Shown here: positions 1 through 26,381 of the stretch, piece after piece
Numbering within the stretch: position 1 is the stretch's first letter
Layout: each line of letters starts with the position of its first letter
DNA from: Dehalococcoidia bacterium
GTDB lineage: Bacteria; Chloroflexota; Dehalococcoidia; DSTF01; RBG-16-68-14
Direction of reading: 5' to 3'
NCBI GenBank assembly: GCA_040882355.1
Contig: JBBEBM010000010.1
Coordinates: forward strand, 1-42,209
Length of the DNA: 42,209 bases
The notes under the pieces: model-generated
Databases searched by the model: none
Seen by the model: only the letters and a program-made list of their open reading frames with translations
Told to the model about the DNA's origin: nothing
Translations under genes and position numbers: made by a program

Positions 1-83
1 CTGAGCTGTACGCGGCGGTCGGAATGAAGTCCAACGGGTGTTGTTATTCCGGCGAGGCAGCAAGCTCAGAAAGCGACTGACCG

Positions 84-1184
84 ATGGCTGTACCAAGGGA
101 AACCATCTGGCCAATAGAACCGCACACAGAAGCTAAGCACGCGATCTTGCGAAAGTACCTGGGCGCCTGGCTGCCCATCATGACTAGTATCAGCAGCCGC
201 GTGCTGTACGTCGACGGCTTCGCCGGTCCAGGAAGATACACGGGAGGAGAGGAGGGCTCTCCGCTAATCGCGCTCCGGGCAGCTCTCGAACACCCGAAGC
301 GCATCACCACAGAGGTCGTTTTCGTCTTCATCGAGAAGGATGAAAGTCGGGCCGCGCATTTGCAGGGAGAGATCCAGCAGTTCTCGAATATTCCATCGAA
401 CTTCGTTATCCAGAGTGCGTGCTCGCCGTTTGATGACACTCTGACAGATGTCCTTGACTCGATCGATGAGCAGGGGAGCAGACTCGCCCCCTGCTTCGCA
501 TTCATAGACCCATTTGGCTTTGCTCAGACGCCATTCTCGGTCGTCAAGCGGATCATGGCTCATCCGAGGTGCGAGGTACTGATCACGTTCATGTATGAGT
601 TCATAAACCGGTTTCTCACCCACCCGGACCTTGGTGAGACATTCGACCGACTCTTCGGCACCGGCACCTGGCGGGTTGCTCGCACACTTGAGGGCGCAGC
701 AGAGAGGCGAGCCTTCCTACACAACCTCTACATCGATCAGCTCCGTCGGGAGGCTGCCATCCAATACGTTCGTTCGTTTGAGATGATCGATGATGGAAAC
801 CGGACTGAGTACTTCCTCTTCTTCGGCACAAATCACATCACGGGGCTGAAGAAGATGAAGGACACCATGTGGAGAGTAGACAAGTCGGGGCGTTTCCAGT
901 TTTCGGACTTTACCAATCCGACCCAGCCGGTCTTGTTCGAAGCCGAGCCCGATTTCGATCACCTGGAACGCCTATTGCGAGGGCGCTTCGGAGGTAACCA
1001 AGCTAGCGTCGAGCGAATCGAGCAGTTCATCGTCGTAGACACACCTTTCACGGACAGTCACTACAAGAGGGGCGTACTGCGGAAACTCGAGTATGCGAAT
1101 CCACCAGGGTTGGAAATCGTAGCTGCGCGGGACAAGCGTAGGCGGGGAACGTATCCTCCTGGCACTATCATTCGCTTCCTCTGA
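84..1184 (+). CDS. tcmP: Three-Cys-motif partner protein (TcmP family, SAM-methyltransferase-like fold with C-terminal wHTH)
   Basis: Characteristic motifs HTEAKHAILRKYL, YVDGFAGPG..EGSP, FIDPFG, YFLFFGTNH..GLKKMKD.MW; visibly more A/T-rich codon usage than its neighbours. Confidence 0.8.
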   Translation: MAVPRETIWPIEPHTEAKHAILRKYLGAWLPIMTSISSRVLYVDGFAGPGRYTGGEEGSPLIALRAALEHPKRITTEVVFVFIEKDESRAAHLQGEIQQFSNIPSNFVIQSACSPFDDTLTDVLDSIDEQGSRLAPCFAFIDPFGFAQTPFSVVKRIMAHPRCEVLITFMYEFINRFLTHPDLGETFDRLFGTGTWRVARTLEGAAERRAFLHNLYIDQLRREAAIQYVRSFEMIDDGNRTEYFLFFGTNHITGLKKMKDTMWRVDKSGRFQFSDFTNPTQPVLFEAEPDFDHLERLLRGRFGGNQASVERIEQFIVVDTPFTDSHYKRGVLRKLEYANPPGLEIVAARDKRRRGTYPPGTIIRFL

Positions 1185-1218
1185 CTCCCGCCTTCCGCCT
1201 CTCGTACCTTCCCGCCGC

Positions 1219-2625
1219 CTACCCACCCCTACCCACCGCCGCGCGGCCGTTCGCGCTCGGGGCGCCCGCAGGCGGCACGAGGCGCTCCTGCTCCTCCAGC
1301 CAGCGCGAGAACTCCGACTCCGGGTCCGCCACGCCGAGCTCGTCGGCGGCGCGACGGCGGCTGTGGATGCCCGACGCCACGAGCACCCGTTCGTCTTCGA
1401 CCAGCCGGCTGCGGTCCTCCGGCACCAGCGGCCCCCAGACGATGCGCGTCCGATAAGGAGCGAAGCTTTGCCCCGTCTGCTGCTCCAGGATGCGCAGCAC
1501 CAGCTCGTTGCGCCGTTGGTACGCCGCCGAACGAATCAGCCGCTTGCGCTGCACCTTCTTCAGCAGCGGGTCCAGCTCCAGCGTCAACGCCACACCCGAG
1601 AGGTTCGCCCGGTTTTCGCCGAACGCCGTCCGCGGCGCCTCGCCCAGGTCGTGCAGGGTGCGGTAGATGAGGTTCACGTAGTCGACGTGGAGCTGCACGC
1701 CGCCGCCCTGCAACAGATCCAGCAGGTAGGCGCGGGCGCGCTCCGGCAGCTCCCACACTGCGCCCGGCTGCACCGCGATGTCTTGCGACTCGTTCACGTT
1801 CTCCAGGACAGCGATCGGGTTGCCCGACAGCTCCAGAATCATCGAGAGCTGCGAGAGCGCCCGGTTCAGCTCGCGCGCCGACTCGCGGATGGGCGGCACG
1901 TCGGAGCAGCCCCAGAACTGCTTCGGCTCGCGCAGGTTCGGGTAGACGACGAACGGCACGAAGCCGTACGGGTTCGCCTTTTCCTCGAAGAGCGCCCCGT
2001 CCACCCACAGCTCGAACGTCTCCGCCGTCCACGACTCCACGACCTCGATGCGCCGCTCGCCCGCGACGACGCTGCGAGCGGACCGCGTCGCGCGTGGCCG
2101 GAAGCCGAGCAGCAGCTCCGCCTCCTCGGCCGACAGGTGGTAGCGGCTCGCGACGCGCCATATCCGGCTCGCGTCGTCGCCCAGCCACCAGACGAACAGC
2201 CCCTGCACGTCCGGCGCCGACACGCGCACCCGGCGTTCGACGGCGTCCCACGTCACCTTGAACGCGCCGTCGCCCAGCACCGCCGCGTCGATCTCCGTGT
2301 CGAAGTCGAGCTGGGCCAGGTTGTTCTGCTCGTAGACGTCCTGGAGCGCGCGCTCCGTCCGCCGCGCCCGCTCGGTCGCCTCAGGGGAGCCGTCCTCCGG
2401 GTCGACGACGCTGTGCATGCCCGACATAAGGTAGGCCGTCGTCTTCTCGATGAGCGTCTTCGCGTAGTTGAACGTCAGCCTCCGCTCCCGGCGACGCGCG
2501 GGCGCCGGCCACTGGTCGCCCTGATAGAACGCGAGCGCTTCGCCGTAGCGGCGCAGCCGCGACAGGTCCCGCCGCGCGAGCTGCTGCGGCAGCGTCAGCG
2601 GACTGATTCGGGCGTCTCGGGCCAT
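1219..2625 (-). CDS. Phage portal protein (SPP1 gp6-like)
   Basis: 468 aa; FYQGDQW, LTFNYAKTLIEKTTAYL, AAVLGDG.FKV.WD, NPYGFVPFV.YPN, ANLSGVAL motifs typical of SPP1-type portals; strong RBS GGAGGTG upstream of the ATG. Confidence 0.85.
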   Translation of the reverse strand: MARDARISPLTLPQQLARRDLSRLRRYGEALAFYQGDQWPAPARRRERRLTFNYAKTLIEKTTAYLMSGMHSVVDPEDGSPEATERARRTERALQDVYEQNNLAQLDFDTEIDAAVLGDGAFKVTWDAVERRVRVSAPDVQGLFVWWLGDDASRIWRVASRYHLSAEEAELLLGFRPRATRSARSVVAGERRIEVVESWTAETFELWVDGALFEEKANPYGFVPFVVYPNLREPKQFWGCSDVPPIRESARELNRALSQLSMILELSGNPIAVLENVNESQDIAVQPGAVWELPERARAYLLDLLQGGGVQLHVDYVNLIYRTLHDLGEAPRTAFGENRANLSGVALTLELDPLLKKVQRKRLIRSAAYQRRNELVLRILEQQTGQSFAPYRTRIVWGPLVPEDRSRLVEDERVLVASGIHSRRRAADELGVADPESEFSRWLEEQERLVPPAGAPSANGRAAVGRGG

Positions 2626-2648
2626 GGTGTCGTCACCTCCGTAACCTG

Positions 2649-2696
2649 GTCATCCTGAGCGCTCCTTTATGTCATTCCGAGCGGAGCGAAGAATCT
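2649..2696. repeat. Two REP-like short repeats (GTCATCCTGAGCG / GTCATTCCGAGCGGAGCGAAGAATCT)
   Basis: Resembles the widespread GTCATTCTGAGCG.AGCGAAGAATCT intergenic repeat family; one partial and one full-length copy in tandem. Confidence 0.6.
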
Positions 2697-2888
2697 CGTT
2701 TGTCCGGGGCCTACGCTACAATCGCCCGCCACCGATCGCGAAGGCGCCCCTGACACCGCCCTACGTCCGCCAACGGCTCCCGCGCGTAGATACGAATGGA
2801 GGCGCGGGCCGCTTGTCTGGTGGTGGCCGCCTACCTATACTGTGCCAAGCTCGCGAACGCGCGTCCTAACTCGAAAGGGGGCTCCCTC

Positions 2889-3905
2889 GTGGCAATCAGA
2901 AGCACATCCGGACGAAGCATCCCGGCGGCCTTCTGGCTCGCCCTCACCCTGTTCGCCTCGATCGCGCTCGTCGCGGGCGCGTGCGGCGGCGGTGGCGGCA
3001 GCGACCCGACGCCCACCGCCGAAGAAGAAGCGCCCACAGACGAACCCACCAGCGACGCCACGGAGGACACCGTCCAGATCGACGAGTCGTTCTGGCACTC
3101 GGGCTGGATGGTCACGCTGGGTGAGGCCACCGTCACCACGGACGACCTCGGCGCCCGCAGCGTCGCCATCGAAGCCACATTCGAGAACCTCGGCACCGAC
3201 ACTGCCACGTTCGACTCGCAGCTCGTGCTTACGTCCGGCGGCAACTCTTACACCGAGACCGGCACCGAGCAGGAGCTGCCTGAGGTGCCCGGCGAGCTCT
3301 CCGGCAGCGGCGTCCTCGCCATCCGCGTCGACGACGAGTTCACCTTCGACGATGCGACGCTCACCATCGGCAACCCGGCGAACAACCAGGCCGTCGTGCC
3401 GCTGGGCCCCGACGGCGACGACCTCGTCACGCTCGAGCCGCGCGAGATCGCGGTCAGCGGCGACGTGACGGCGGGCGCCGTCAGGGTGACCGTCGAGCGC
3501 GCCGAGCTGCGCGCCGACCTCCCCGACGCCCACAGCATCATGGAAGAGGGCAAGCTGGCGCTCACGGTGTACTTCTCCGTCACGCCCAGCGCCGGCATCC
3601 AGATCGGCCAGGGGGTGTTCCAGGACCCGAACGTCGCGCTCAAGCTGCCCGACGGCACGGCGGTCGCCGTGCGCAGCGACGGCGTCAGCGGCGTGAACGA
3701 GCTGCTCCAGGGCAAGGAGGGCACGACGATCTCTGGCCTCTCCGTGCGCTTCGAGGTGAACGAGCCGGCCGAAGGTCAGTACGCCTTCGTCGTACGCGGC
3801 GCCTATGGCCCGGGCGGCGCCCAGGCGGAGGGCGAGCTCCCGTTCACGATCGTTGCCGTCGCAGCAGGAGCGTCGCCCACCGCCGGCCCGACCCCGACGC
3901 CGTAA
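2889..3905 (+). CDS. Putative lipoprotein with two beta-sandwich-like domains
   Basis: GTG start at 2889, basic N-region, hydrophobic stretch, lipobox-like AGA-C, Gly/Pro/Thr/acidic linker, then two beta-rich halves. Confidence 0.65.
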   Translation: MAIRSTSGRSIPAAFWLALTLFASIALVAGACGGGGGSDPTPTAEEEAPTDEPTSDATEDTVQIDESFWHSGWMVTLGEATVTTDDLGARSVAIEATFENLGTDTATFDSQLVLTSGGNSYTETGTEQELPEVPGELSGSGVLAIRVDDEFTFDDATLTIGNPANNQAVVPLGPDGDDLVTLEPREIAVSGDVTAGAVRVTVERAELRADLPDAHSIMEEGKLALTVYFSVTPSAGIQIGQGVFQDPNVALKLPDGTAVAVRSDGVSGVNELLQGKEGTTISGLSVRFEVNEPAEGQYAFVVRGAYGPGGAQAEGELPFTIVAVAAGASPTAGPTPTP

Positions 3906-3906
3906 G

Positions 3907-4815
3907 CTAGGCCTTCTCCCACGCGAGCACCACGCACGGCGTGCCCTTGCGGTCGATCGGCGCATCGTGGAAGGCGCGCAGCCCGAACGACGCTGACCGC
4001 GTCCGAAGCGCGCCGACCTGTCGGTCGGCGAGCAGCAGCGCGATCCGCCCGCCCGGCCTGAGCACGCGCGCCATCTCGCCGAGCGCCGTGACCACCGCTT
4101 CGTCCGCCTCCGGCTCGTACGGCGGTTCGGTCGCGATGGCATCGACGCTGCTCGACTCGAACGGCAGCGATTGCGCGTCGGCGACGCAGTGCGCCGCACC
4201 CAGCGCGCGCAGGCCGTGGCGCAGCGACGGGTCGACGTCGCAGCTCAGGACTCGATAGCCGCTCGTCAGCCCTTCCAGCACGACGCCACCGGCGCCAGCG
4301 AACGGGTCGAGGAGCGTAGCCCCAGGCAGCGTCGCGACGAGGTTCACGAGCATGCGCGCATCAATCACCGGCAGCCCGCGCCTGCTCAGGGGCCCGCTGC
4401 CGCCTCGATAGCCGCGCACCGGCCGCGCCTCGCCGCCGCTCTCGAGCACGAAGGTGCGCCGGTCGGGCGCCGCCTCGCGTAGCTCGCCGGCGTCCTCCTC
4501 GTGGAGACGCGCCAGCCGATACGAGCGCCCCCGCCAGCGCACGTCGCCTTCGTCCTCCGTCGGCTCGACCAGGTCGACCGCGTAGCTATAGCCGAGGCGC
4601 GGCAGGCGGTCGCGCGCGCGCTCTAGCGCGTCAGCGGGCAGCGTCAGCCAGAAGACGCCGCCCTGCTCGGACAGCGGCCCGCCGGGCGCGACCGCAGCGC
4701 CGAGGTCGCGCAGCAGGCACGTCGCCTCCGCCGTCGCCGTCGACAGCGCTCGGCGCCGGGCCGGGCGGACGTGGAAGATGAGGAGGGCGGGGTCCATGCA
4801 AACGCGCGGCGTCAT
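3907..4815 (-). CDS. SAM-dependent amino-methyltransferase (Trm11/RNA methylase-like)
   Basis: Motif I LLDPFAGAGG, ARMLVNL, motif IV variant IATEPPY, RVLRPGG. Confidence 0.7.
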   Translation of the reverse strand: MTPRVCMDPALLIFHVRPARRRALSTATAEATCLLRDLGAAVAPGGPLSEQGGVFWLTLPADALERARDRLPRLGYSYAVDLVEPTEDEGDVRWRGRSYRLARLHEEDAGELREAAPDRRTFVLESGGEARPVRGYRGGSGPLSRRGLPVIDARMLVNLVATLPGATLLDPFAGAGGVVLEGLTSGYRVLSCDVDPSLRHGLRALGAAHCVADAQSLPFESSSVDAIATEPPYEPEADEAVVTALGEMARVLRPGGRIALLLADRQVGALRTRSASFGLRAFHDAPIDRKGTPCVVLAWEKA

Positions 4816-4825
4816 CGCGCCGCGA

Positions 4826-5731
4826 TCACGCCGTGCCAGGCGCTGCCGAGGACTTCAGCACCTCGAACACCTTATGTCGACCCGCCTTGCCGCGCAGGTC
4901 GGCTTCGAAGTCCCTGCCGACCTGGAAGGCGGGCGCCACCCGCTCGACAACCGGCTCGGTCACCAGCAGATTAACGCCGCTCTCCTTCGTCAGGGTCTGC
5001 ACCCGCGACGCCGTGTTCACGACGTCGCCGATGGCGCTGAGCTGCGTGTTCCGATAGTACCCGACCTGGCCCACCACTGCCCTGCCGAAGTCGATGCCGA
5101 TGCCCATGCGCATCTCGAACCCGAAGTGCTCCGTCGAGTAAACGCTCAGCGCCCGGCTCGCATCGATCATATCGATGCCGCAATGGACGGCCGCCAGCGC
5201 CGCCCGGTCACCGCCGGCCAGGAAGAGCGCCATCATGCCGTCGCCCTGAAACGAGACCACGTGGCCGTGGTGCGCTTCGACGAGCGTGCCCATCCTGTCG
5301 AAGTAGCGATTGAGCAGGTGCAGGACATCGAAGGGCAAGTGCTGTTCCGAGAAGGTCGTGTAGTCGCGGATGTCCGAGAAGAGGACCGCGACCTCGCGCT
5401 CCAGCGCCAGTCCTTCAGCCAGGGAGGGCGCCGCCGGCCGGTCGCTCTCGTGCAGGAGCACCCGAACCGTGATGTCGCCCTGGGGGTGGAGCTGGCAGGC
5501 CAGACGAATCGGCGACTCGAGGCGGTTCAGGGCCAGGACGACCTGCTCGTCGTCGGACGGCGCGCCGCAGTGTTCCAGGCCTGCGATCACCTCGACGCGA
5601 CACGTGCTGCAGCGGCACTTTCCGTCGCAGGCATGCCGGTGGTCGATGCCGGCGCGGTTCGACGCCTCGAGGACATCCTCCCCGGGCTCGAGCTCGATGG
5701 TCGGCCCATCAACAAAACTGACGCGCGGCAC
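4826..5731 (-). CDS. 2Fe-2S ferredoxin-fused class III adenylate/guanylate cyclase
   Basis: N-terminal HACDGKCRCSTC...RLACQ (2Fe-2S ligands); cyclase motifs VLFSDIRDYT, GDGMMALF, IGDVVNTASR, LRGK. Confidence 0.85.
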   Translation of the reverse strand: MPRVSFVDGPTIELEPGEDVLEASNRAGIDHRHACDGKCRCSTCRVEVIAGLEHCGAPSDDEQVVLALNRLESPIRLACQLHPQGDITVRVLLHESDRPAAPSLAEGLALEREVAVLFSDIRDYTTFSEQHLPFDVLHLLNRYFDRMGTLVEAHHGHVVSFQGDGMMALFLAGGDRAALAAVHCGIDMIDASRALSVYSTEHFGFEMRMGIGIDFGRAVVGQVGYYRNTQLSAIGDVVNTASRVQTLTKESGVNLLVTEPVVERVAPAFQVGRDFEADLRGKAGRHKVFEVLKSSAAPGTA

Positions 5732-5906
5732 AGTCGGTCTGAACGCTCCTTCACACTGCTGAATCGCAACCTACTGTAGCTTGGCCCTGTACACCCCGGC
5801 AACCGGATTCGATGTCAGTTCGCTCCTATGTGAGCCCCTTCATAGAGCCGGCGGCCCCTTCGGGCGTAGTGTATGCGTAACAAGGGGCTTACACAGGGAG
5901 GCTATC

Positions 5907-6281
5907 ATGGTACAGGTCCGCGGGGTGTATGAAGTCGCCATCCGGGTGAGGGATCTCGCCCGGTCAGAGCAGTTTTACCGGGGTCTCCTGGGCCTGGGCT
6001 TGGGCCTGCGCGACGAGGAGCATCACTTGGTCTTCCTGCGCGTGGGCGATCAGACCGCCATGATCGTGCTCCAGGAGGACAAGGGTGATTGGTCGAAGCA
6101 GCATTTCGCCTTCACGGTCGACGAAGGCGAAATCGACGGCGCCGCGACCCTCCTGCGGGAGCGAGGCATCGAGGTGCGCGGGCCGGTCGTCCACGACAGG
6201 ATGCCGGCGAAGTCGCTTTACTTCGACGACCCGGACGGGCACTCGCTGGAGTTGTGCGCGCCGATCAACGGCAAGAGCTAG
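5907..6281 (+). CDS. VOC/glyoxalase family protein
   Basis: RBS GGAGG then ATG at 5907; VRDLARSEQFY, HFAFTV, SLYFDDPDGHSLEL. Confidence 0.85.
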   Translation: MVQVRGVYEVAIRVRDLARSEQFYRGLLGLGLGLRDEEHHLVFLRVGDQTAMIVLQEDKGDWSKQHFAFTVDEGEIDGAATLLRERGIEVRGPVVHDRMPAKSLYFDDPDGHSLELCAPINGKS

Positions 6282-6643
6282 GCGGACCGCCGCAGGGTCC
6301 CCTTCTCCTCCCTGCCCGCCGCCAGGATGCGAAACACGCTCCGCCGAGAGAGACCGAACTCGCTCGCCACCACATCGATGGCGGCTCCCTCAGCTCGTCG
6401 CTGGCAGACAGCACCGTCCCTCGAGCCCTGGAGCAGCTTACGAGCGCCGCCCGGCTCGTCATAGCGACAGTGCTCTAACGGGCAGCGCAGACAGGTCGGC
6501 GAAAGGTCGCAGCCGGCGTCTCGAAACGCCAAGTACTCCGGCAGCGCGTCCACGCGAACTCTTCGGCCGTTGGGGTGGCGGAAGTGGTCGGCGCGGATGG
6601 CATCGAGCCCTCTCCGGGCGAGCAGGTCTTGGTCGGTCGTCAT
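6278..6643 (-). CDS. Small DNA-binding protein: Cys4 motif plus C-terminal helix-turn-helix
   Basis: C-x5-C-x2-C-x4-C (CDLSPTCLRCPLEHC) followed by IDVVASEFGLSRRSVFRIL HTH; RBS GAGGAGG; 36 nt downstream of the terminase stop on the same strand. Confidence 0.75.
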   Translation of the reverse strand: MTTDQDLLARRGLDAIRADHFRHPNGRRVRVDALPEYLAFRDAGCDLSPTCLRCPLEHCRYDEPGGARKLLQGSRDGAVCQRRAEGAAIDVVASEFGLSRRSVFRILAAGREEKGTLRRSA

Positions 6644-6679
6644 CGGTCTATTCCTCCTCGCTTCTCGCTACAGCAAGCG

Positions 6680-8122
6680 TTACAGCGCTTCCCGCACACG
6701 GCCTCGCGCCATGCGGGGCGCCGCGTCGGCTCCCGCCTCCGCGAGCAGCGCCAGGCTCATCAGATAGTCGTCGTGTCCGTCGGACTGCTCGACGAAGAAG
6801 TTCATCGTCCGGTTTGCCCGGTAGGCGACGCGGGCGCGCTCCAGCTCGTGCCGGCAGTGCCGGTACTCCTGCGAGTTGTCGCCGGCGTAGAGCTTCAGCC
6901 GGCCGGCGTTCACCGCCGCCAGCAGCCCGTAGCCCAGCCGCGACTTCGCCTCCTGAGTGAAGCGCACCGGGTGCACGACCAGCGAGCCGAGCGTCGCCGT
7001 CAACAGCCGCGCGATCGTCTCGCCGAGGCCCGTCGCGTCGACGGCAAGCCGGCGCACCTGCCAGACCTCGCGCAGCAAGTCGACGAGGCGCTGAATGAGC
7101 GCGTCGTGCGGCTCGCCCGTCCAGACGTAGTGCTCCACCACATCCAGCTGCGGATCGTGCACGACCGCGCCCCGGCCGGGATACGCCGCGCGCGCGATCG
7201 TGAGCACCGTCGAGTCGCGCCGCGCGTTCGGCGTGGAGGGCGGCGTCCCAACGTCGCCCTCCAGCTCGCCGCCCGCCAGATCGAGCCCAGCCACGTACGT
7301 CTCGCCGGTGCGAGGCGCTCGCTGGCGCTCATGACGCCCCTCCAACTGCGCGAGCTGGCCTGCGTTGAACAGCCGCCCGCCGCCCGCGATCGGCTTCAGA
7401 CAGTACTGCGTCAGGAACAGCGGGTGCTGCTCGCCGAGACGCTGCCGCTCCGCCTCCACGTAGCGACCGTAGGCCGGGTTGTGCCGCGCAACCGCCTGCC
7501 AGTCGTGCTCGAAGTGACGCTGGACGCCGTCGCGACGCTCCAGCTCCAGATGGCGCTGCTTCGCCCGCTCCAGCAGCGTCGAGTCGTCCCAGGCGGTGCC
7601 GTAGAAGACGGTTGTCGCGTTGGACGTCGCCGCCATCGGCCGGAACTCGCGGTCGAACTTCTCCTCCGCCACGTCCTGCGCCTCATCGACCTCGAGCAGG
7701 ATCTGGGCGGTGTGGCCGACCACGTTCGCGCCCGGCTCCGCCGAGAGGAAGACCTGGCGCGCCCTCCCCACCCGCACGATGGGGCCGGCCTCGCGCGAGG
7801 CCAGCGGCGCCAGCCCCGCCTCCAGCAGGCGCGACCAGAGCCGGCGCATGCTGATCCGCCCTTGCGGGTCGAAGGTCGGCGCGCACTTCACAGCGTCGGC
7901 GTCGCGCGAGACGTGGAGCGAGAGCAGCAGCGCCTCGAGCTGGGCCGACAGCTCGTTCTTGCCGCCCTGCCGCGCGATCTCCACCGAGAAGCTCAGGCCC
8001 CGCTCTTGCACGATGCTATCGAGGATCGCGCGGCCCGCCTCCACCTGGTACGGGCGGAGCCGCTGCTTCCAGGGGCCGGCGCCGAGCGCCACGGCGCATG
8101 GAATGATGGCAGCCATCATCAC
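6680..8122 (-). CDS. terL: Phage terminase large subunit
   Basis: Adenine-binding LRPYQ, Walker A IARQGGKNE, Walker B LLEVDEAQD, coupling motif YGTAW, RNase H-like nuclease residues VAGLDLAG, AVDATGLG and GHDDYLMSLAL. Confidence 0.88.
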   Translation of the reverse strand: MMMAAIIPCAVALGAGPWKQRLRPYQVEAGRAILDSIVQERGLSFSVEIARQGGKNELSAQLEALLLSLHVSRDADAVKCAPTFDPQGRISMRRLWSRLLEAGLAPLASREAGPIVRVGRARQVFLSAEPGANVVGHTAQILLEVDEAQDVAEEKFDREFRPMAATSNATTVFYGTAWDDSTLLERAKQRHLELERRDGVQRHFEHDWQAVARHNPAYGRYVEAERQRLGEQHPLFLTQYCLKPIAGGGRLFNAGQLAQLEGRHERQRAPRTGETYVAGLDLAGGELEGDVGTPPSTPNARRDSTVLTIARAAYPGRGAVVHDPQLDVVEHYVWTGEPHDALIQRLVDLLREVWQVRRLAVDATGLGETIARLLTATLGSLVVHPVRFTQEAKSRLGYGLLAAVNAGRLKLYAGDNSQEYRHCRHELERARVAYRANRTMNFFVEQSDGHDDYLMSLALLAEAGADAAPRMARGRVREAL

Positions 8123-8352
8123 CCCAGCAGACGCAGCACGAGCTGCGCGGCGACCGTGCCCGCGAGCAAGAAGATCAGCCCGTTCACGCGCCCCTTCACC
8201 TCCTGTAGCTCGCGCTCCAGGCCGCGCAGCCGCTCGTCCACCACCGCCCGAAAGCCTTCGGCCGACAGCGACGCCAGCGGCTCATCGCGCGTGATTCGTC
8301 GCTGGCGCCGCAGTCTGGCCAGCGTCCGTTCAAGAACGGGCGGCTCACTCAT
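8119..8352 (-). CDS. Small coiled-coil protein with C-terminal transmembrane helix (XhlA/holin-associated-like architecture)
   Basis: VDERLRGLERELQEVKGRVN coiled coil followed by GLIFLLAGTVAAQLVLRLLG; overlaps both neighbours (ATGA overlap with terL). Confidence 0.6.
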   Translation of the reverse strand: MSEPPVLERTLARLRRQRRITRDEPLASLSAEGFRAVVDERLRGLERELQEVKGRVNGLIFLLAGTVAAQLVLRLLG

Positions 8353-8719
8353 CGCGAAACGCCTCCGGCATGAGCTGTCCGCCCACCCCCCGCACGACGC
8401 TCGCCAGGCTTGCCGCCAGGTCCTCCTCCGCCTGCTTCGACAGCCGGTAGCGCGCCGACACCGCCTTCACCAGCATGTCGATACCACGCAGCATCAGCGG
8501 GATGTCCTCTCGTTTCTCGTCGACCACTTTGCGCAGCCTTACGCGGAGGAGTGCGATCTCATCATCGAGCCGTTCGATGTCCGACGCCTCGTCCAGCTCT
8601 ATCTGCTCCGCCGCTTCGAGAGCGCTGCGATAGAAGTTCTTGGCCAGCGCTGCGCGGCCGCCACCCGTCGAGCGCCGCCGCGGCGCCTTGCGCTCCACTT
8701 CAGCGCTTTCGGCGGTCAC
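8345..8719 (-). CDS. Putative terminase small subunit-like protein
   Basis: 124 aa, basic N-terminus, KNFY..AL then LDDEIALLRVRL helix, all-helical; position just upstream of terL; assignment by position and size, not by search. Confidence 0.55.
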   Translation of the reverse strand: MTAESAEVERKAPRRRSTGGGRAALAKNFYRSALEAAEQIELDEASDIERLDDEIALLRVRLRKVVDEKREDIPLMLRGIDMLVKAVSARYRLSKQAEEDLAASLASVVRGVGGQLMPEAFRDE

Positions 8720-8867
8720 CGGGCACGCCTTCCAGCAGCTCCAGCAGGCTCTCCAACGTCTCAGGCGGCACCCGCGATGCGGCGTCCGCGACGCCGGCCA
8801 GCAGGCAGAGCGCTGCCAGCGACCAGTCGCGCCGTTCTATCGCCAGCGTGAGGGCAGATACGGCCAT
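8700..8867 (-). CDS. Small hypothetical protein (55 aa) with hydrophobic core
   Basis: MAVSALTLAIERRDWSLAALCLLAGV...; ATG 2 nt after the previous stop and overlapping the next gene, consistent with translational coupling. Confidence 0.55.
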   Translation of the reverse strand: MAVSALTLAIERRDWSLAALCLLAGVADAASRVPPETLESLLELLEGVPGDRRKR

Positions 8868-8869
8868 CG

Positions 8870-9196
8870 CTACGAGCGCGACCCCCGCAGGATGAGAATC
8901 GAGATGAACAGCGTCGCCAGTAGCAGCGGCAGCCGCGCGACCGCCCACGCCTCAGGCGAAAGCTGGCCGGGCAGGACGCCTCGTTGCCACCAGAAAAGCC
9001 CCTGCGAGAAGACCGCCTCGATCACCGCCGCGGCGCTGACAAGTACGAGGGCCAGCGCGCCCACGCGCCGCCCGCGCGACCCGTTCCGCCGCCACCAGTA
9101 CCCTGCGAAGTACGCTGCGTTCAGCAACCCGCAGCCCGCAGTCGCCAGGTCCTGCGCCACCACCAGCCCCGTTCCGTTCACGCTGTTGCCTCTCAT
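8870..9196 (-). CDS. Small membrane protein with three predicted TM helices; first gene of the terminase operon
   Basis: Hydrophobic segments GCGLLNAAYFAGYWW, VGALALVLVSAAAVIEAVF, LPLLLATLFISILIL; start ATG 9196 or GTG 9181 (GAGAGG RBS); the ORF-track TTG at 9256 is the -35 hexamer. Confidence 0.65.
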   Translation of the reverse strand: MRGNSVNGTGLVVAQDLATAGCGLLNAAYFAGYWWRRNGSRGRRVGALALVLVSAAAVIEAVFSQGLFWWQRGVLPGQLSPEAWAVARLPLLLATLFISILILRGSRS

Positions 9197-9227
9197 CGCG
9201 CGCTGTCCGCTCAGGTCTTTCTCGTGC

Positions 9228-9256
9228 AGAGTAGTACATATGTTCGCCTCCGTCAA
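9228..9256 (-). promoter_or_regulatory. Sigma70-type promoter with LexA-type SOS box for the terminase operon
   Basis: Minus strand: TTGACG (9256-9251), 17-nt spacer, TACTCT (9233-9228); the spacer contains CGAAC-ATAT-GTAC (9246-9234), close to GAAC-N4-GTTC. Confidence 0.75.
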
Positions 9257-9348
9257 GACCGCCTAGGCATACCCGCCGAATTGTTGCCAAGATGGGCATT
9301 GCCCTACGTAGATCGCCCTCGCCCTGCCGATGCTACAGGTGGAGGTTC

Positions 9349-9540
9349 ATGAGAGACATGGCTACCGCATCCCGCAAGCACACTCGCATAGACCAGCTCG
9401 ACGAAGGGGAGTGGCTCCACCGCCTGCTCGCGCCCACCCACGAGCGCGTCGCGACGCACCCCAGTCCGCAGGCCATCGAACGCATTCGCGCCCGCCTGCT
9501 TCGCGAGATCGTCAAGACGCCCGCGCGCAAGGCTGCGTAG
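9349..9540 (+). CDS. Small hypothetical protein (63 aa), divergent from the terminase operon
   Basis: GGAGG RBS at 9341-9345 before ATG 9349 (alternative ATG 9358); host-like codon usage; followed by a hairpin. Confidence 0.55.
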   Translation: MRDMATASRKHTRIDQLDEGEWLHRLLAPTHERVATHPSPQAIERIRARLLREIVKTPARKAA

Positions 9541-9561
9541 CGACCAAACGAGCGCACACAT

Positions 9562-9595
9562 CGAATGGGCGTGGCACGAGAGCCTCGCCCTTTCG
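9562..9595. terminator. Imperfect hairpin between convergent genes
   Basis: CGAATGGGCGTGGC-ACGAGA-GCCTCGCCCTTTCG, two mismatches. Confidence 0.4.
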
Positions 9596-9620
9596 CTATT
9601 CCCGTGCTGTCGGCCAGGTA

Positions 9621-9833
9621 CTATTCGCTAAGCAGCCCCTGCTCGCTCAGGAAGGCACGCAGCTCATCCGGCGTGCCGAACACGCGCGAGCCGATCGCGT
9701 CCAGGACGTCGACTACGTCATCCGGAGCATCGCTGTCGAACGCGCGGTCCACCACGTCGCCGCGCTCCACTCGCCCGCTCGCGCCGTAGGCGGCGCTCAC
9801 GTACTCCTCAATCTGCTCCCACGATACTGCCAT
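9621..9833 (-). CDS. Small acidic protein, DUF2795-like
   Basis: 70 aa; DAPDDVVDVLDAI..RVFGTPDEL pattern; AAGGAGAGG RBS. Confidence 0.6.
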   Translation of the reverse strand: MAVSWEQIEEYVSAAYGASGRVERGDVVDRAFDSDAPDDVVDVLDAIGSRVFGTPDELRAFLSEQGLLSE

Positions 9834-9870
9834 GCCTCTCCCTTCTCCCGTTCGTTCTCGGTTCCAGGTT

Positions 9871-10455
9871 CTACGTTCGCTGCGAAATCACCAGCTCGTT
9901 GCGCGCCGCCACCGTGTCCGGATGGAGCGGCCAGCCCCGCTCCACCGCCCGCTCGACCTGTCGGTCCAGGATGCGCAGCATCGCCGCCTCCAGGCTCTCA
10001 TCCGCTAGCCGGCGAGCCTCAGCCAGCGCCGGGTCATCGCGCGCCTTCTCCGGCTCGATCTTGTCCGCGACGAAGATCAGCCGCTCCAGCGCGCTCATGC
10101 CGGCGCGGCCTGTCGTGTGATAGCTCGCTGCCGCCAGCACCTCCTCGTCGGCGACGCCGTAGCGCTCGGCCATGATCCGGGCGCTGAGCCTGCCGTGGAG
10201 CAGGACCGGCTCCGAACGCTCAACCTCCGAAGGCGCCAGGCCCGCCGCCTCCGCGTCCCGCACTAGATCGGCTGGCCGATGCCCGCGCGTCAGGTCGTGA
10301 CCCAGCGCCGCGATGACCGCCCGTTGCTCATCGATGCCGTGCCGGTCGGCCAGACGCTTCGCCTCGGTAACCACGCGCTGCACGTGCTCGCGCAGGCCGC
10401 GCGGCAGCTCCGCCACGGCTTGCTCCAACGCCGCGCGCGCGTCAGTCGTCGTCAT
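9871..10455 (-). CDS. yqeK: HD-domain symmetrical Ap4A hydrolase (YqeK family)
   Basis: EHVQRV, ALGHD, LLHG.LSA, YHTTG..GMS.LERLIFVADKIEP; ATGA overlap with the upstream gene. Confidence 0.85.
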   Translation of the reverse strand: MTTTDARAALEQAVAELPRGLREHVQRVVTEAKRLADRHGIDEQRAVIAALGHDLTRGHRPADLVRDAEAAGLAPSEVERSEPVLLHGRLSARIMAERYGVADEEVLAAASYHTTGRAGMSALERLIFVADKIEPEKARDDPALAEARRLADESLEAAMLRILDRQVERAVERGWPLHPDTVAARNELVISQRT

Positions 10456-11609
10456 CGTTCGAACCACAGCTCGTAGACGTGCTCACCGCGGCGAAGCACG
10501 TAGCGCCCATCGACAGCCTGCGGCAGCGCCCCAAGGGCCTCGCCGGCCGCGGGCCGGACGCGCACGCGCAGGTCGCGCACATCCGGCCGCCCCTCAACAC
10601 GCCAGCGTTCGAGGGCGTCCTTCAGGAAATCGAGCGCTTCGCCTGTACCGAACAGAGGCACGTTGCCGCGCTTCGGGCGTTCCCAGCCCAGCGCGACCGC
10701 CGACTCCGGCGAGACGAGCATCAGGAAGGCCGATTCTGCTCCGATCGGCCGGCGCAGAAGCTGGAGCATCGGCCGGCCCTGCAGGGCCAGGTAGTAGAGC
10801 GGGCCGGTGCGCCGGTCCCGGCGGCGCGGAAACCGGAAGCGCACGTGCCGCTCTTGCACCAGGAGACGCGCCACGGCGGCCTTCATCGACTCGTCCACTT
10901 CGCAGTCCGCCCAGACCCCGAGGTCGGGCCCGACCCTGCCGGCGTGCAGCCGGCCGAATTCGCCGCGCATCGGCATGAAGCCGCACTCGCACGTTCGCTC
11001 GCTCACGAGGCACTCGCCCTGTTTTCGAAGCGCGAGAGCGACGTGGACGCCGTTCAGCCGGAAGGGCATGACGAGCACTCCGCCCTCGACAAGCTGGTCG
11101 AGCCACGGCTGCGGGATCTGCCAGCAGCTCGCCGTGGCGATGATCCGGTCATAGGGCGCGTTCTGCCCGTAGGCGAAGCCGCCGTCGCCCGTCACGACCT
11201 GAACGCCCTCGTAGCCCGCCGAGCGCAGGTGCTCCTCGGCGCCCTTCGCCGTCTCGTCGTCGATGTCGATGGTGGTGACGTGGCCGTCTGACCCCACGAG
11301 CTGCGAAAGCAACGCTGCGTTGTATCCCGTGCCCGCGCCGATCTCCAGCACGCGCTGGCCGCGCTTCAGCTCGAGCTGCTCCAGCATGACCGCCATGATC
11401 GAGGGCTGGCTGGACGAGCTCACGCCGATGCCGTCGATCTGCTTCGTGACCAGAGCCCGGTCCGCGTAGACGTCGGGAAGCGGCTGCTCGGGCACAAAGA
11501 TGTGGCGCGGCACCGTCGCGAACGCCTCGCAGACCTGCTCGCTGCGCACAACCCCACGCCGGCGCAGGTCGTCGACAAGCTGTTTGCGGAGAGCTTCGGC
11601 TTCGGTCAT
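10452..11609 (-). CDS. Protein-L-isoaspartate O-methyltransferase-like protein, long form with C-terminal extension
   Basis: AFATVPRHIFV, SSSSQPSIMAVMLEQL, VLEIGAGTGYNAALL, APYDRIIATA, WLDQLVEGGVLVMP, CGFMPMRG. Confidence 0.8.
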   Translation of the reverse strand: MTEAEALRKQLVDDLRRRGVVRSEQVCEAFATVPRHIFVPEQPLPDVYADRALVTKQIDGIGVSSSSQPSIMAVMLEQLELKRGQRVLEIGAGTGYNAALLSQLVGSDGHVTTIDIDDETAKGAEEHLRSAGYEGVQVVTGDGGFAYGQNAPYDRIIATASCWQIPQPWLDQLVEGGVLVMPFRLNGVHVALALRKQGECLVSERTCECGFMPMRGEFGRLHAGRVGPDLGVWADCEVDESMKAAVARLLVQERHVRFRFPRRRDRRTGPLYYLALQGRPMLQLLRRPIGAESAFLMLVSPESAVALGWERPKRGNVPLFGTGEALDFLKDALERWRVEGRPDVRDLRVRVRPAAGEALGALPQAVDGRYVLRRGEHVYELWFER

Positions 11610-25201: not shown

Positions 25202-26305
25202 CTACTCCACCAGCTCTTCTTCGCGCTCGTCGCTTGGCGCGGGTGTTGCCGCAGGCTGTGCGCCGCTGGCCGCCGCCCGCACCTCGCGCTCGATCTCATC
25301 CGCCAGCGTCGGGTTTTCGCGCAGATAGCCCTTCGCGTTCTCGCGGCCCTGGCCCAGGCGCAAGTCGCCGTAGCTCAGGAACGCGCCCAGCTTCTTCACC
25401 ACGCCCAGCTCGACGCCCAGGTCGAGCAGGTCGCCCTCCCGGCTGATGCCGGCGTGAGGGCCAAGGAACATGATGTCGAACTCAGCGTTTCGGAAGGGGG
25501 CGGCCACCTTGTTCTTCACCACCTTCGTCCGCACGCGGCTGCCGATGATCTGCGTTCCGTGCTTCAGCGTTTCGATCCGCCGGATGTCGATGCGCACCGA
25601 GCTGTAGAACTTCAGCGCCCGCCCGCCCGGCGTCACCTCCGGGTTGCCGAAGACAACGCCGATCTTCTCGCGAAGCTGATTGATGAAGATGACCGCCGTG
25701 CGGGAGCGCGCGATGGCGCCGGTCAGCTTCCGCAGCGCCTGCGACATGAGCCGCGCCTGCAGACCGGGCAGCGAGTCGCCCATCTCACCTTCGATCTCCG
25801 CCCGCGGCACGAGGGCGGCGACGCTATCGATGACGATGATGTCGACGGCGTTGCTCCGCACCAGCGCCTCGGTGATCTCCAGCGCCTGTTCGCCCGTGTC
25901 CGGCTGCGACACGAGCAGATCGTCTACTTTGACGCCAATTCCCGACGCGTACGTCGGCTCCAGCGCGTGCTCGACATCGATGTAGGCCGCCATGCCGCCT
26001 GCCGCCTGCGCCTGGGCGATGATGTGCTGGGCCAGCGTCGACTTGCCGGCCGATTCCGGCCCGAAGATCTCCGTGATCCGCCCTCGCGGCACGCCGCCCA
26101 CACCCAGCGCGATGTCCAGGGCGATCGAACCGGTCGGAATCGATTCGATATGAAGGTTGGCGGATGCCTCACCCAGGCGCATGATCGCGCCCCGGCCGAA
26201 CTGCTTCTCGATCTGGCTCAGCGCCAGGTCCAGCGCCTCGCCTTTGGCCTTCGAGCTGCCCTCGCCCTTCGAGTTGTTCTCCGTACCATTGTTGTTGTTC
26301 GCCAT
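25202..26305 (-). CDS. recA: Recombinase A
   Basis: [62 protein letters not shown]. Confidence 0.99.
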
Positions 26306-26352: not shown

Positions 26353-26381
26353 AATATAGCATAAGTGTTCGATATTTGCAA
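26353..26381 (-). promoter_or_regulatory. recA promoter with LexA-type SOS box
   Basis: Minus strand TTGCAA (26381-76), 17-nt spacer, TATATT (26358-53); the spacer holds CGAAC-ACTT-ATGC abutting the -10. Confidence 0.75.

Follow-up and report, generated by a model that had tools for sequence, protein, structure and literature searches.

LexA operators of the Cheo-box type, found in Firmicutes and Actinobacteria, are 12-bp inverted repeats of the form GAAC-N4-GTTC, and the history of this motif in Bacillus and Mycobacterium is set out in PMC3323433. In Cheo-box systems, lexA is autoregulated through the repeat, and the box is also found overlapping the promoters of recA, a translesion polymerase and an Rv2578c-family radical SAM gene. 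LexA boxes with one mismatch are commonly functional in Bacillus and Mycobacterium, and the LexA of Dehalococcoides reportedly uses the Gram-positive box as well, which is said to be described in a 2002 J. Bacteriol. paper.

Host LexA is also known to act on phage-type genes. In phage GIL01 of Bacillus thuringiensis it directly represses a phage promoter in a system with no CI-type repressor (PMC4551915). For the gene transfer agents (GTAs) of Alphaproteobacteria, PMC6473078 states that LexA of R. capsulatus acts at the cckA promoter and that in-silico LexA sites have been reported at the GTA cluster of Dinoroseobacter shibae.

Here, we analyzed a terminase operon of a Dehalococcoidia genome in which a predicted LexA-type operator lies within the promoter. 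The clade carries the same 12-bp repeat as the Cheo-box systems, through which its lexA would likewise be autoregulated, and the box overlaps promoters of the same translesion polymerase, recA and radical SAM genes. Unlike in those systems, one position of the half-site is unconstrained (G-N-A-C, or GT-N-C in the opposite half), an A usually precedes GAAC, and the proposed target is a phage-derived packaging operon. A host LexA box within the promoter of phage-type genes is shared with GIL01, but GIL01 is a replicating temperate phage that needs the small co-repressor gp7, whereas the genes studied here are chromosomal, vertically inherited and interrupted by cellular genes. In having a domesticated, vertically inherited head-gene cluster with a probable tie to LexA, the locus resembles the alphaproteobacterial GTAs (RcGTA and that of D. 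shibae). It differs from them in belonging to another phylum, in the epsilon15/SU10-like ancestry of its capsid and adaptor, and in having the box directly in the packaging-operon promoter and not acting via CtrA/CckA. Direct LexA control of phage promoters and links between SOS and GTAs are known, and no description of the putative Dehalococcoidia element or its operator was found in the literature on Dehalococcoides LexA, prophages and gene transfer agents.

A predicted LexA operator in the terminase promoter

The window is the whole of contig C10 (42,209 nt) from an 82-contig, 3.33-Mb assembly with 67% GC. The sequencing runs listed number seven, all of DNA from sediment or soil metagenomes, with none of RNA among them. 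On its minus strand, positions 9256-9228 read directly as TTGACG, gaggc, GAAC-ATAT-GTAC and TACTCT, with a 17-nt spacer. The -35 hexamer TTGACG (9251-9256) has a TTGAC core that is kept in orthologous promoters, and the -10 hexamer TACTCT (9228-9233) corresponds to TATTCT in most of the clade. The predicted operator GAAC-ATAT-GTAC (9234-9245) fills the promoter spacer and abuts the -10. It has one mismatch to GAAC-N4-GTTC, and it overlaps promoter elements at a place where LexA binding would block RNA polymerase. Judging from the promoter position, transcription of the operon would start near 9221.

The mismatch of the box sits at a half-site position that is also variable in orthologous terminase and polymerase IV operators. 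Left halves of the form GTAC, GCAC or GGAC, and the mirror right halves GTGC and GTAC, are seen in polymerase IV promoters and, for many genera, in terminase promoters as well, and the terminase promoter of G012, a genome of another genus, has an identical GAAC-ATAT-GTAC box. The site of this genome is nevertheless among the most degenerate of 27 aligned orthologous promoters, with GC before the box where most of the clade has TA, GTAC as the right half, and TACTCT in place of the usual -10. The output of a generic sigma-70 and terminator scan of positions 1-10000 contained neither this promoter nor any terminator; the promoter is missed because TACTCT shares only 3/6 positions with TATAAT.

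The promoter of recA (26353-26381, minus strand) has its box in the same position. It consists of TTGCAA (26381-26376), atatc, the degenerate box GAAC-ACTT-ATGC (26370-26359) and TATATT (26358-26353), again with a 17-nt spacer, and precedes the recA gene at 25202-26305 on the minus strand (ATG at 26305; RecA Pfam E 3.6e-130). An earlier note, made from the letters of the window, had described 17-nt spacers and a box abutting the -10 in both the terminase and the recA promoters, and re-reading of the two sites found this layout to be exact. Its statement that the terminase box is the nearer of the two to the consensus is correct by mismatch count (one against two for recA) but not under a matrix built from lexA operators, where the recA site scores higher. 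Among relatives, GAAC-N4-(A/G)TGC abuts the -10 of the recA promoter in 13/13 same-family loci, and many recA loci of two other families have GAAC-N4-TTTC.

The SOS motif of the clade

The genome has one lexA gene (C65:7746-8387), with a perfect GAAC-AGTC-GTTC box (C65:7709) located 37 nt before the start and just downstream of a TTGACA/-10-like pair. By eye, the protein retains an Ala-Gly site for cleavage as well as the Ser and Lys motifs of LexA. From relatives, 30 lexA loci were fetched and one with only 80 nt upstream was left out; a box with at most one mismatch is present upstream of lexA in all 29 loci with enough upstream sequence. Another perfect box lies upstream of a DNA polymerase IV-like gene (C64:5107), whose promoter has the arrangement TTGACA, box and TAT-type -10 in 27/30 loci of relatives. 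The Rv2578c-family radical SAM gene has a perfect box at C4:11235 and a second, one-mismatch box at 11203. The presence of the box in the lexA, polymerase IV, radical SAM and recA promoters points to this motif as the SOS operator of the clade, and to a position in the spacer abutting the -10 as its usual placement.

More intergenic boxes of the GAAC-N4-GTTC type, some of them paired, were observed at C66:4932-4975, C1:39903 and C56:57454-57482. They adjoin genes without an obvious SOS role or have no called gene nearby.

Within this genome alone, the terminase site is indistinguishable from chance (not significant). The genome contains 33 perfect boxes against about 30 expected, and 15 of the 33 are intergenic, compared with an intergenic fraction of 18% for the genome. 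One-mismatch boxes number 1078, of which 232 (21.5%) are intergenic; these box counts use gene calls from a crude codon-usage caller that covered 82% of the genome. A symmetrised matrix from 19 distinct lexA operators of relatives ranks the lexA site first and places the polymerase IV and radical SAM sites in the top 11, and with the 20-nt matrix the recA site is 25th among intergenic sites. The core-only matrix puts the terminase site at about the 282nd place among intergenic sites, and when flanks are included it drops below the cut-off. Scoring with a matrix from the lexA, recA and uvrA upstream regions of this genome had been proposed as a check on the operator, and the matrix from lexA operators did not single the terminase site out.

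Conservation of the terminase promoter

Orthologous promoters were compared at the level of the order using 30 fetched loci, 26 of which had at least 1100 nt upstream of terL. Sites were accepted with up to two mismatches, a following TAnnnT and a -35-like element. Exactly one promoter-plus-box was found in 24/26 upstream regions, 1109-1404 nt upstream of terL, and a stricter limit of at most one mismatch retained 22/26. The reverse complement of the same regions gave 0/26, and 200 shuffles gave a mean of 0.075/26. Of the two regions without such a site, that of G009 has a perfect box farther out, at about -1600, and that of G053 has no box in its available 1635 nt upstream. Three more distant loci (L059, L060 and L063, with 55-66% TerL identity) have the promoter-plus-box, and the box is absent from a Ktedonobacteraceae locus (L062, 45% TerL identity).

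At the level of the class, we used 20 loci from 19 other families of Dehalococcoidia with a GC content of 47-71%. GAAC-N4-GT(T/G)C abutting a TATnnT -10 is present in 18 of these loci, two lack the box, and two have three or four boxes each. Conservation upstream of orthologous operons, the other sequence check suggested earlier, was therefore borne out both within the order (24/26) and in other families of the class (18/20).

In the alignment of 27 promoters, the columns carry almost no information beyond the stretch from -11 to +17 around the box. Positions G1, A3, C4, T10, T11 and C12 of the box are nearly invariant, and the inner N4 is more variable than the half-sites. As these promoters were chosen by motif match, the alignment shows the sharpness of the footprint and not its existence, for which the 24/26 count is the unbiased test.

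A TGACA-like element is located about 13-14 nt upstream of the -35 in 16/23 terminase promoters of the order and in 9/18 from other families. It was found in 0/12 polymerase IV promoters, at 0/18 lexA sites and at 22/580 random positions, and in this genome it is absent from 9257-9290. In the relatives, the element may be a site for a second regulator of the terminase promoter.

The six-gene operon and its large terminase

The promoter precedes six intact open reading frames on the minus strand, which overlap or abut one another. The product of orf1 (8870-9196, with an alternative GTG start at 9181) has three hydrophobic stretches, giving it a membrane character by eye. The start of orf2 (8700-8867, 55 aa) adjoins the orf1 stop, and orf3 (8345-8719) encodes 124 aa. 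The next gene, orf4 (8119-8352), overlaps both orf3 and terL and encodes a coiled-coil-like protein of 77 aa with a hydrophobic C-terminus. It is followed by the gene for a 480-aa TerL-like protein (6680-8122), assigned by weak Pfam and PHROG matches and a fold search, and the last gene of the operon (6278-6643) encodes a 121-aa protein with four cysteines and a C-terminal HTH, a candidate regulator or DNA-recognition subunit. In tblastn searches of the related loci, orf1 was found in 31, orf2 in 37, orf3 in 54, orf4 in 46 and the HTH gene in 40, and the genes flanking the operon were found in none of them.

No Pfam, PHROG or NCBIfam family matched orf1-orf4 above threshold. In viral contigs, orf3 is located directly upstream of terL in 43/80 cases and is the sole small ORF so placed, which makes it the strongest candidate for a small terminase subunit, as its position in the operon also suggests. 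Its Atlas matches are Chloroflexota hypothetical proteins together with the T5 small terminase at 0.79, the latter serving as a lead only. The HTH protein gave HTH_7/HTH_23 matches below the Pfam cut-off, and its Atlas clusters are HTH_23/HTH_7, partly viral.

A 63-aa ORF (9349-9540, plus strand) with a GGAGG-type ribosome-binding site is divergent from the terminase promoter. It has tblastn matches with 36-54% identity in 11 same-family loci and no family match.

Pfam and PHROG matches of the TerL-like protein were sub-threshold, and a PDB sequence search produced no meaningful match, so a fold search was needed. An AlphaFold model from a 21-sequence alignment (pLDDT 82.8) gave full-length Foldseek matches to the large terminases of HK97, T4, D6E and Sf6 with E values of 1.8e-16 to 1e-12 (entries 6z6d, 3cpe, 5oeb and 4iei), as well as domain-level matches to the nuclease and ATPase domains of G20c and P74-26. 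At the level of the predicted model, the two-domain fold of a large terminase is confirmed, with an N-terminal ASCE ATPase and a C-terminal RNase H-like nuclease. The Walker A motif (residues 50-56) is ARQ(G/A)GKN in 21/21 aligned sequences and departs from the canonical GK[S/T], with N replacing S/T, which makes the ATPase chemistry of this protein uncertain. Other invariants of the alignment are LLE(V/I)DE, YGTAW, D281, D362, D451-D452 and GHDD, of which the acidic residues and the Walker B were assigned to catalytic roles by eye. Terminases of this order are full-length proteins that retain most of the motifs.

Relatives of this TerL were found on 157 IMG/VR contigs, 80 of which were kept (46-64% identity). 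These viral contigs have homologous orf3, TerL, portal and capsid genes in the same compact order, but differ in the other genes of the operon, with orf1 in 0/80, orf2 in 1/80, orf4 in 3/80 and the HTH gene in 6/80. Among the contigs with at least 1600 nt upstream, the box plus -10 was present in 4/51, against 2/51 on the control strand. Thus, the operator and the genes for the membrane proteins and the HTH protein belong to the chromosomal lineage and not to its free phage relatives.

Distribution of the phage-derived element

Pfam and PHROG searches identified an SPP1-type portal gene at 1219-2625 on the minus strand, which belongs to the same element as the terminase operon. It is separated from the HTH gene by four inserted genes (2626-6280), namely a glyoxalase-family gene (plus strand), a ferredoxin-adenylate/guanylate cyclase fusion (minus), a methyltransferase (minus) and a 369-aa secreted-looking ORF (plus). 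In two related genomes, G028 and G006, the portal is close to terL and the HTH gene. The remainder of the element is on another contig (C36:6828-16258) in the order HlyIII, scaffold-like protein, lipase, epsilon15/SU10-type major capsid, 883-aa ORF, SU10-type adaptor, three ORFs and ruvB; the ORFs without an assigned family in this part include, besides the 883-aa one, an ORF of 503 aa. The major capsid protein was recognized with E values of 3.7e-62 (NCBIfam) and 4.2e-76 (PHROG). The HlyIII and lipase genes are interspersed among the head genes, and ruvB follows directly after. No integrase, repressor or replication gene was detected among the scanned ORFs around both loci (the window and C36) in this fragmented assembly.

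Within the order, TerL is present in 55/61 genomes, mostly with one match each and with identity falling from 81% to 56% with kinship, and the capsid in 51/61. Across the class Dehalococcoidia, the TerL profile matched 204/301 evenly sampled genomes (157/223 of good quality) and the capsid 172/301 (134/223), and the same families are empty for TerL and capsid alike (for example 0/17 and 0/7). Several complete genomes are among the carriers. The unpublished genome G044 is included in these order- and class-level tallies, in that of the 29 lexA loci above and in that of the 29 capsid loci below. In the TerL tree, the family of this genome forms one clade with a support of 98/100. The labels of five families require 5 changes on the tree against a minimum of 4, compared with a mean of 11.8 after shuffling, and 0/200 shuffles were as low. 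As in GTAs, phage-derived structural genes are vertically inherited across a host clade. In several relatives, TerL or the portal is split or contains stop codons, which, like the multi-copy TerL and the two capsid variants described next, speaks against a domestication that is simple and uniform.

Several further variations were noted in the distribution. Genomes of one genus (g50, family f24) have two to five full-length TerL copies each and a single capsid gene, and several genomes of the g80 genus have TerL and are not among the capsid matches. Within the family of this genome the capsid occurs in two variants, with an identity of about 80% for G006 and G007 and of about 60% for 11 other genomes; as TerL stays 73-81% identical, this suggests module exchange.

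Of 29 relatives (capsid loci L261-L289), 12 have another promoter of this design in front of the scaffold-capsid genes; the 12 come mostly from one other family together with two genomes of this family. This second promoter comes before the scaffold gene, and its upstream distance to the capsid gene is 620-800 nt, with one case of 1321 nt; in G006 it lies between the HlyIII and scaffold-like genes. The homologous scaffold promoter of this genome (C36:7416-7510) has kept the -35-like and -10-like hexamers and lacks the box. A search upstream of the portal, scaffold and capsid genes of this genome found no LexA box. As the scaffold promoter has no box, it does not follow that SOS controls the whole particle in this genome.

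An ordinary inducible prophage with a CI-type repressor was considered as the carrier of these genes and rejected. The distribution is clade-wide and follows taxonomy, and neither an integrase nor a repressor is among the scanned ORFs.

Discussion

The earlier note had proposed that the packaging genes are repressed directly by host LexA. This part gains strong comparative support from the conserved promoter and from the motif shared with lexA and polymerase IV, but the carrier is not an ordinary prophage. The note also assumed that no phage repressor is involved; in relatives, the TGACA-like element specific to terminase promoters points to a second regulator. On the sequence comparisons presented here, we consider it probable that host LexA, acting at 9234-9245, represses a domesticated, class-wide, phage-derived packaging operon that is derepressed by DNA damage. 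In the unstressed cell, a LexA dimer bound at this site would block RNA polymerase. Upon DNA damage, RecA would stimulate LexA to cleave itself, and the promoter thus cleared would drive the six-gene minus-strand operon from about 9221 to 6278. The operon belongs to an ancient phage-derived head-gene set with terminase, portal, scaffold, epsilon15/SU10-like capsid and adaptor, and its products would assemble a packaging machine. The HTH protein and the upstream TGACA-like element could add a second layer of control. As the operator lies in the promoter of a class-wide, vertically inherited operon, DNA damage probably induces the expression of these virus-like genes. The head-gene set is vertical across Dehalococcoidia and interrupted by cellular genes, which suggests that SOS is wired to a domesticated packaging machine and not to an ordinary prophage.

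How far this extends to the genome studied depends on the state of its own site. The operator might be real in the clade and decayed here, leaving a promoter that is no longer LexA-repressed or is barely active. Such decay would fit a site that is among the most divergent of the aligned promoters, scores low with the lexA matrix, has no TGACA-like element and is not listed by a consensus scan, and it would also fit the homologous scaffold promoter, which has lost, or never had, its box. We nevertheless regard decay as unlikely, since all six ORFs are intact, a genome of another genus (G012) has the same box, the mismatch falls at a position that is variable among operators of lexA-regulon genes, and one-mismatch boxes often work in Bacillus and Mycobacterium. 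Since the GTAC half-site variant is tolerated elsewhere and recurs in an identical box, yet the copy in this genome is degenerate, we consider LexA control to be very likely at the level of the clade and likely, but weaker, for this genome's copy.

It is also conceivable, though improbable, that a regulator other than LexA, such as the four-cysteine HTH protein encoded by the operon, binds the palindrome, which would then resemble a LexA box in appearance only. Terminase promoters with TA flanks, an AT-rich N4 and a TGACA-like element are indeed unlike the lexA and polymerase IV promoters. However, their half-sites, spacing and tolerated variants match the lexA and polymerase IV sites in the same genomes, and the TGACA-like element is outside the box, where it is more readily explained by an additional regulator than by one that replaces LexA. 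That an ordinary promoter should contain a one-mismatch box by chance might be expected from the abundance of such matches in this genome, but this reading is effectively refuted by the position-specific conservation in the order and the class, for which the strand and shuffle controls were clean.

If the terminase operon is indeed repressed by LexA, we lean towards gene-transfer-agent-like or defective particles as the outcome, the alternative being an exapted function in the damage response. A more specific and rather doubtful possibility is that Dehalococcoidia, small-genome lineages included, have a class-wide GTA derived from an epsilon15/SU10-like podovirus, with the packaging operon (and in many lineages the scaffold-capsid genes) wired directly to LexA, so that DNA damage would lead to the packaging and export of host DNA. 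Should this GTA reading be true, it would give Chloroflexota their first GTA, and this would also be the first GTA whose own promoter contains a LexA operator.

If LexA controls the operon, the packaging machine would be among the most conserved members of the SOS regulon across the class, beside lexA, recA and the translesion polymerase. As the compact viral relatives are without the operator, this would also show clearly how a virus-derived module can be rewired to a stress regulator of the host. Dehalococcoidia include environmentally important and hard-to-culture organisms, for which such control would offer a testable way into the study of horizontal gene transfer or of a new damage response.
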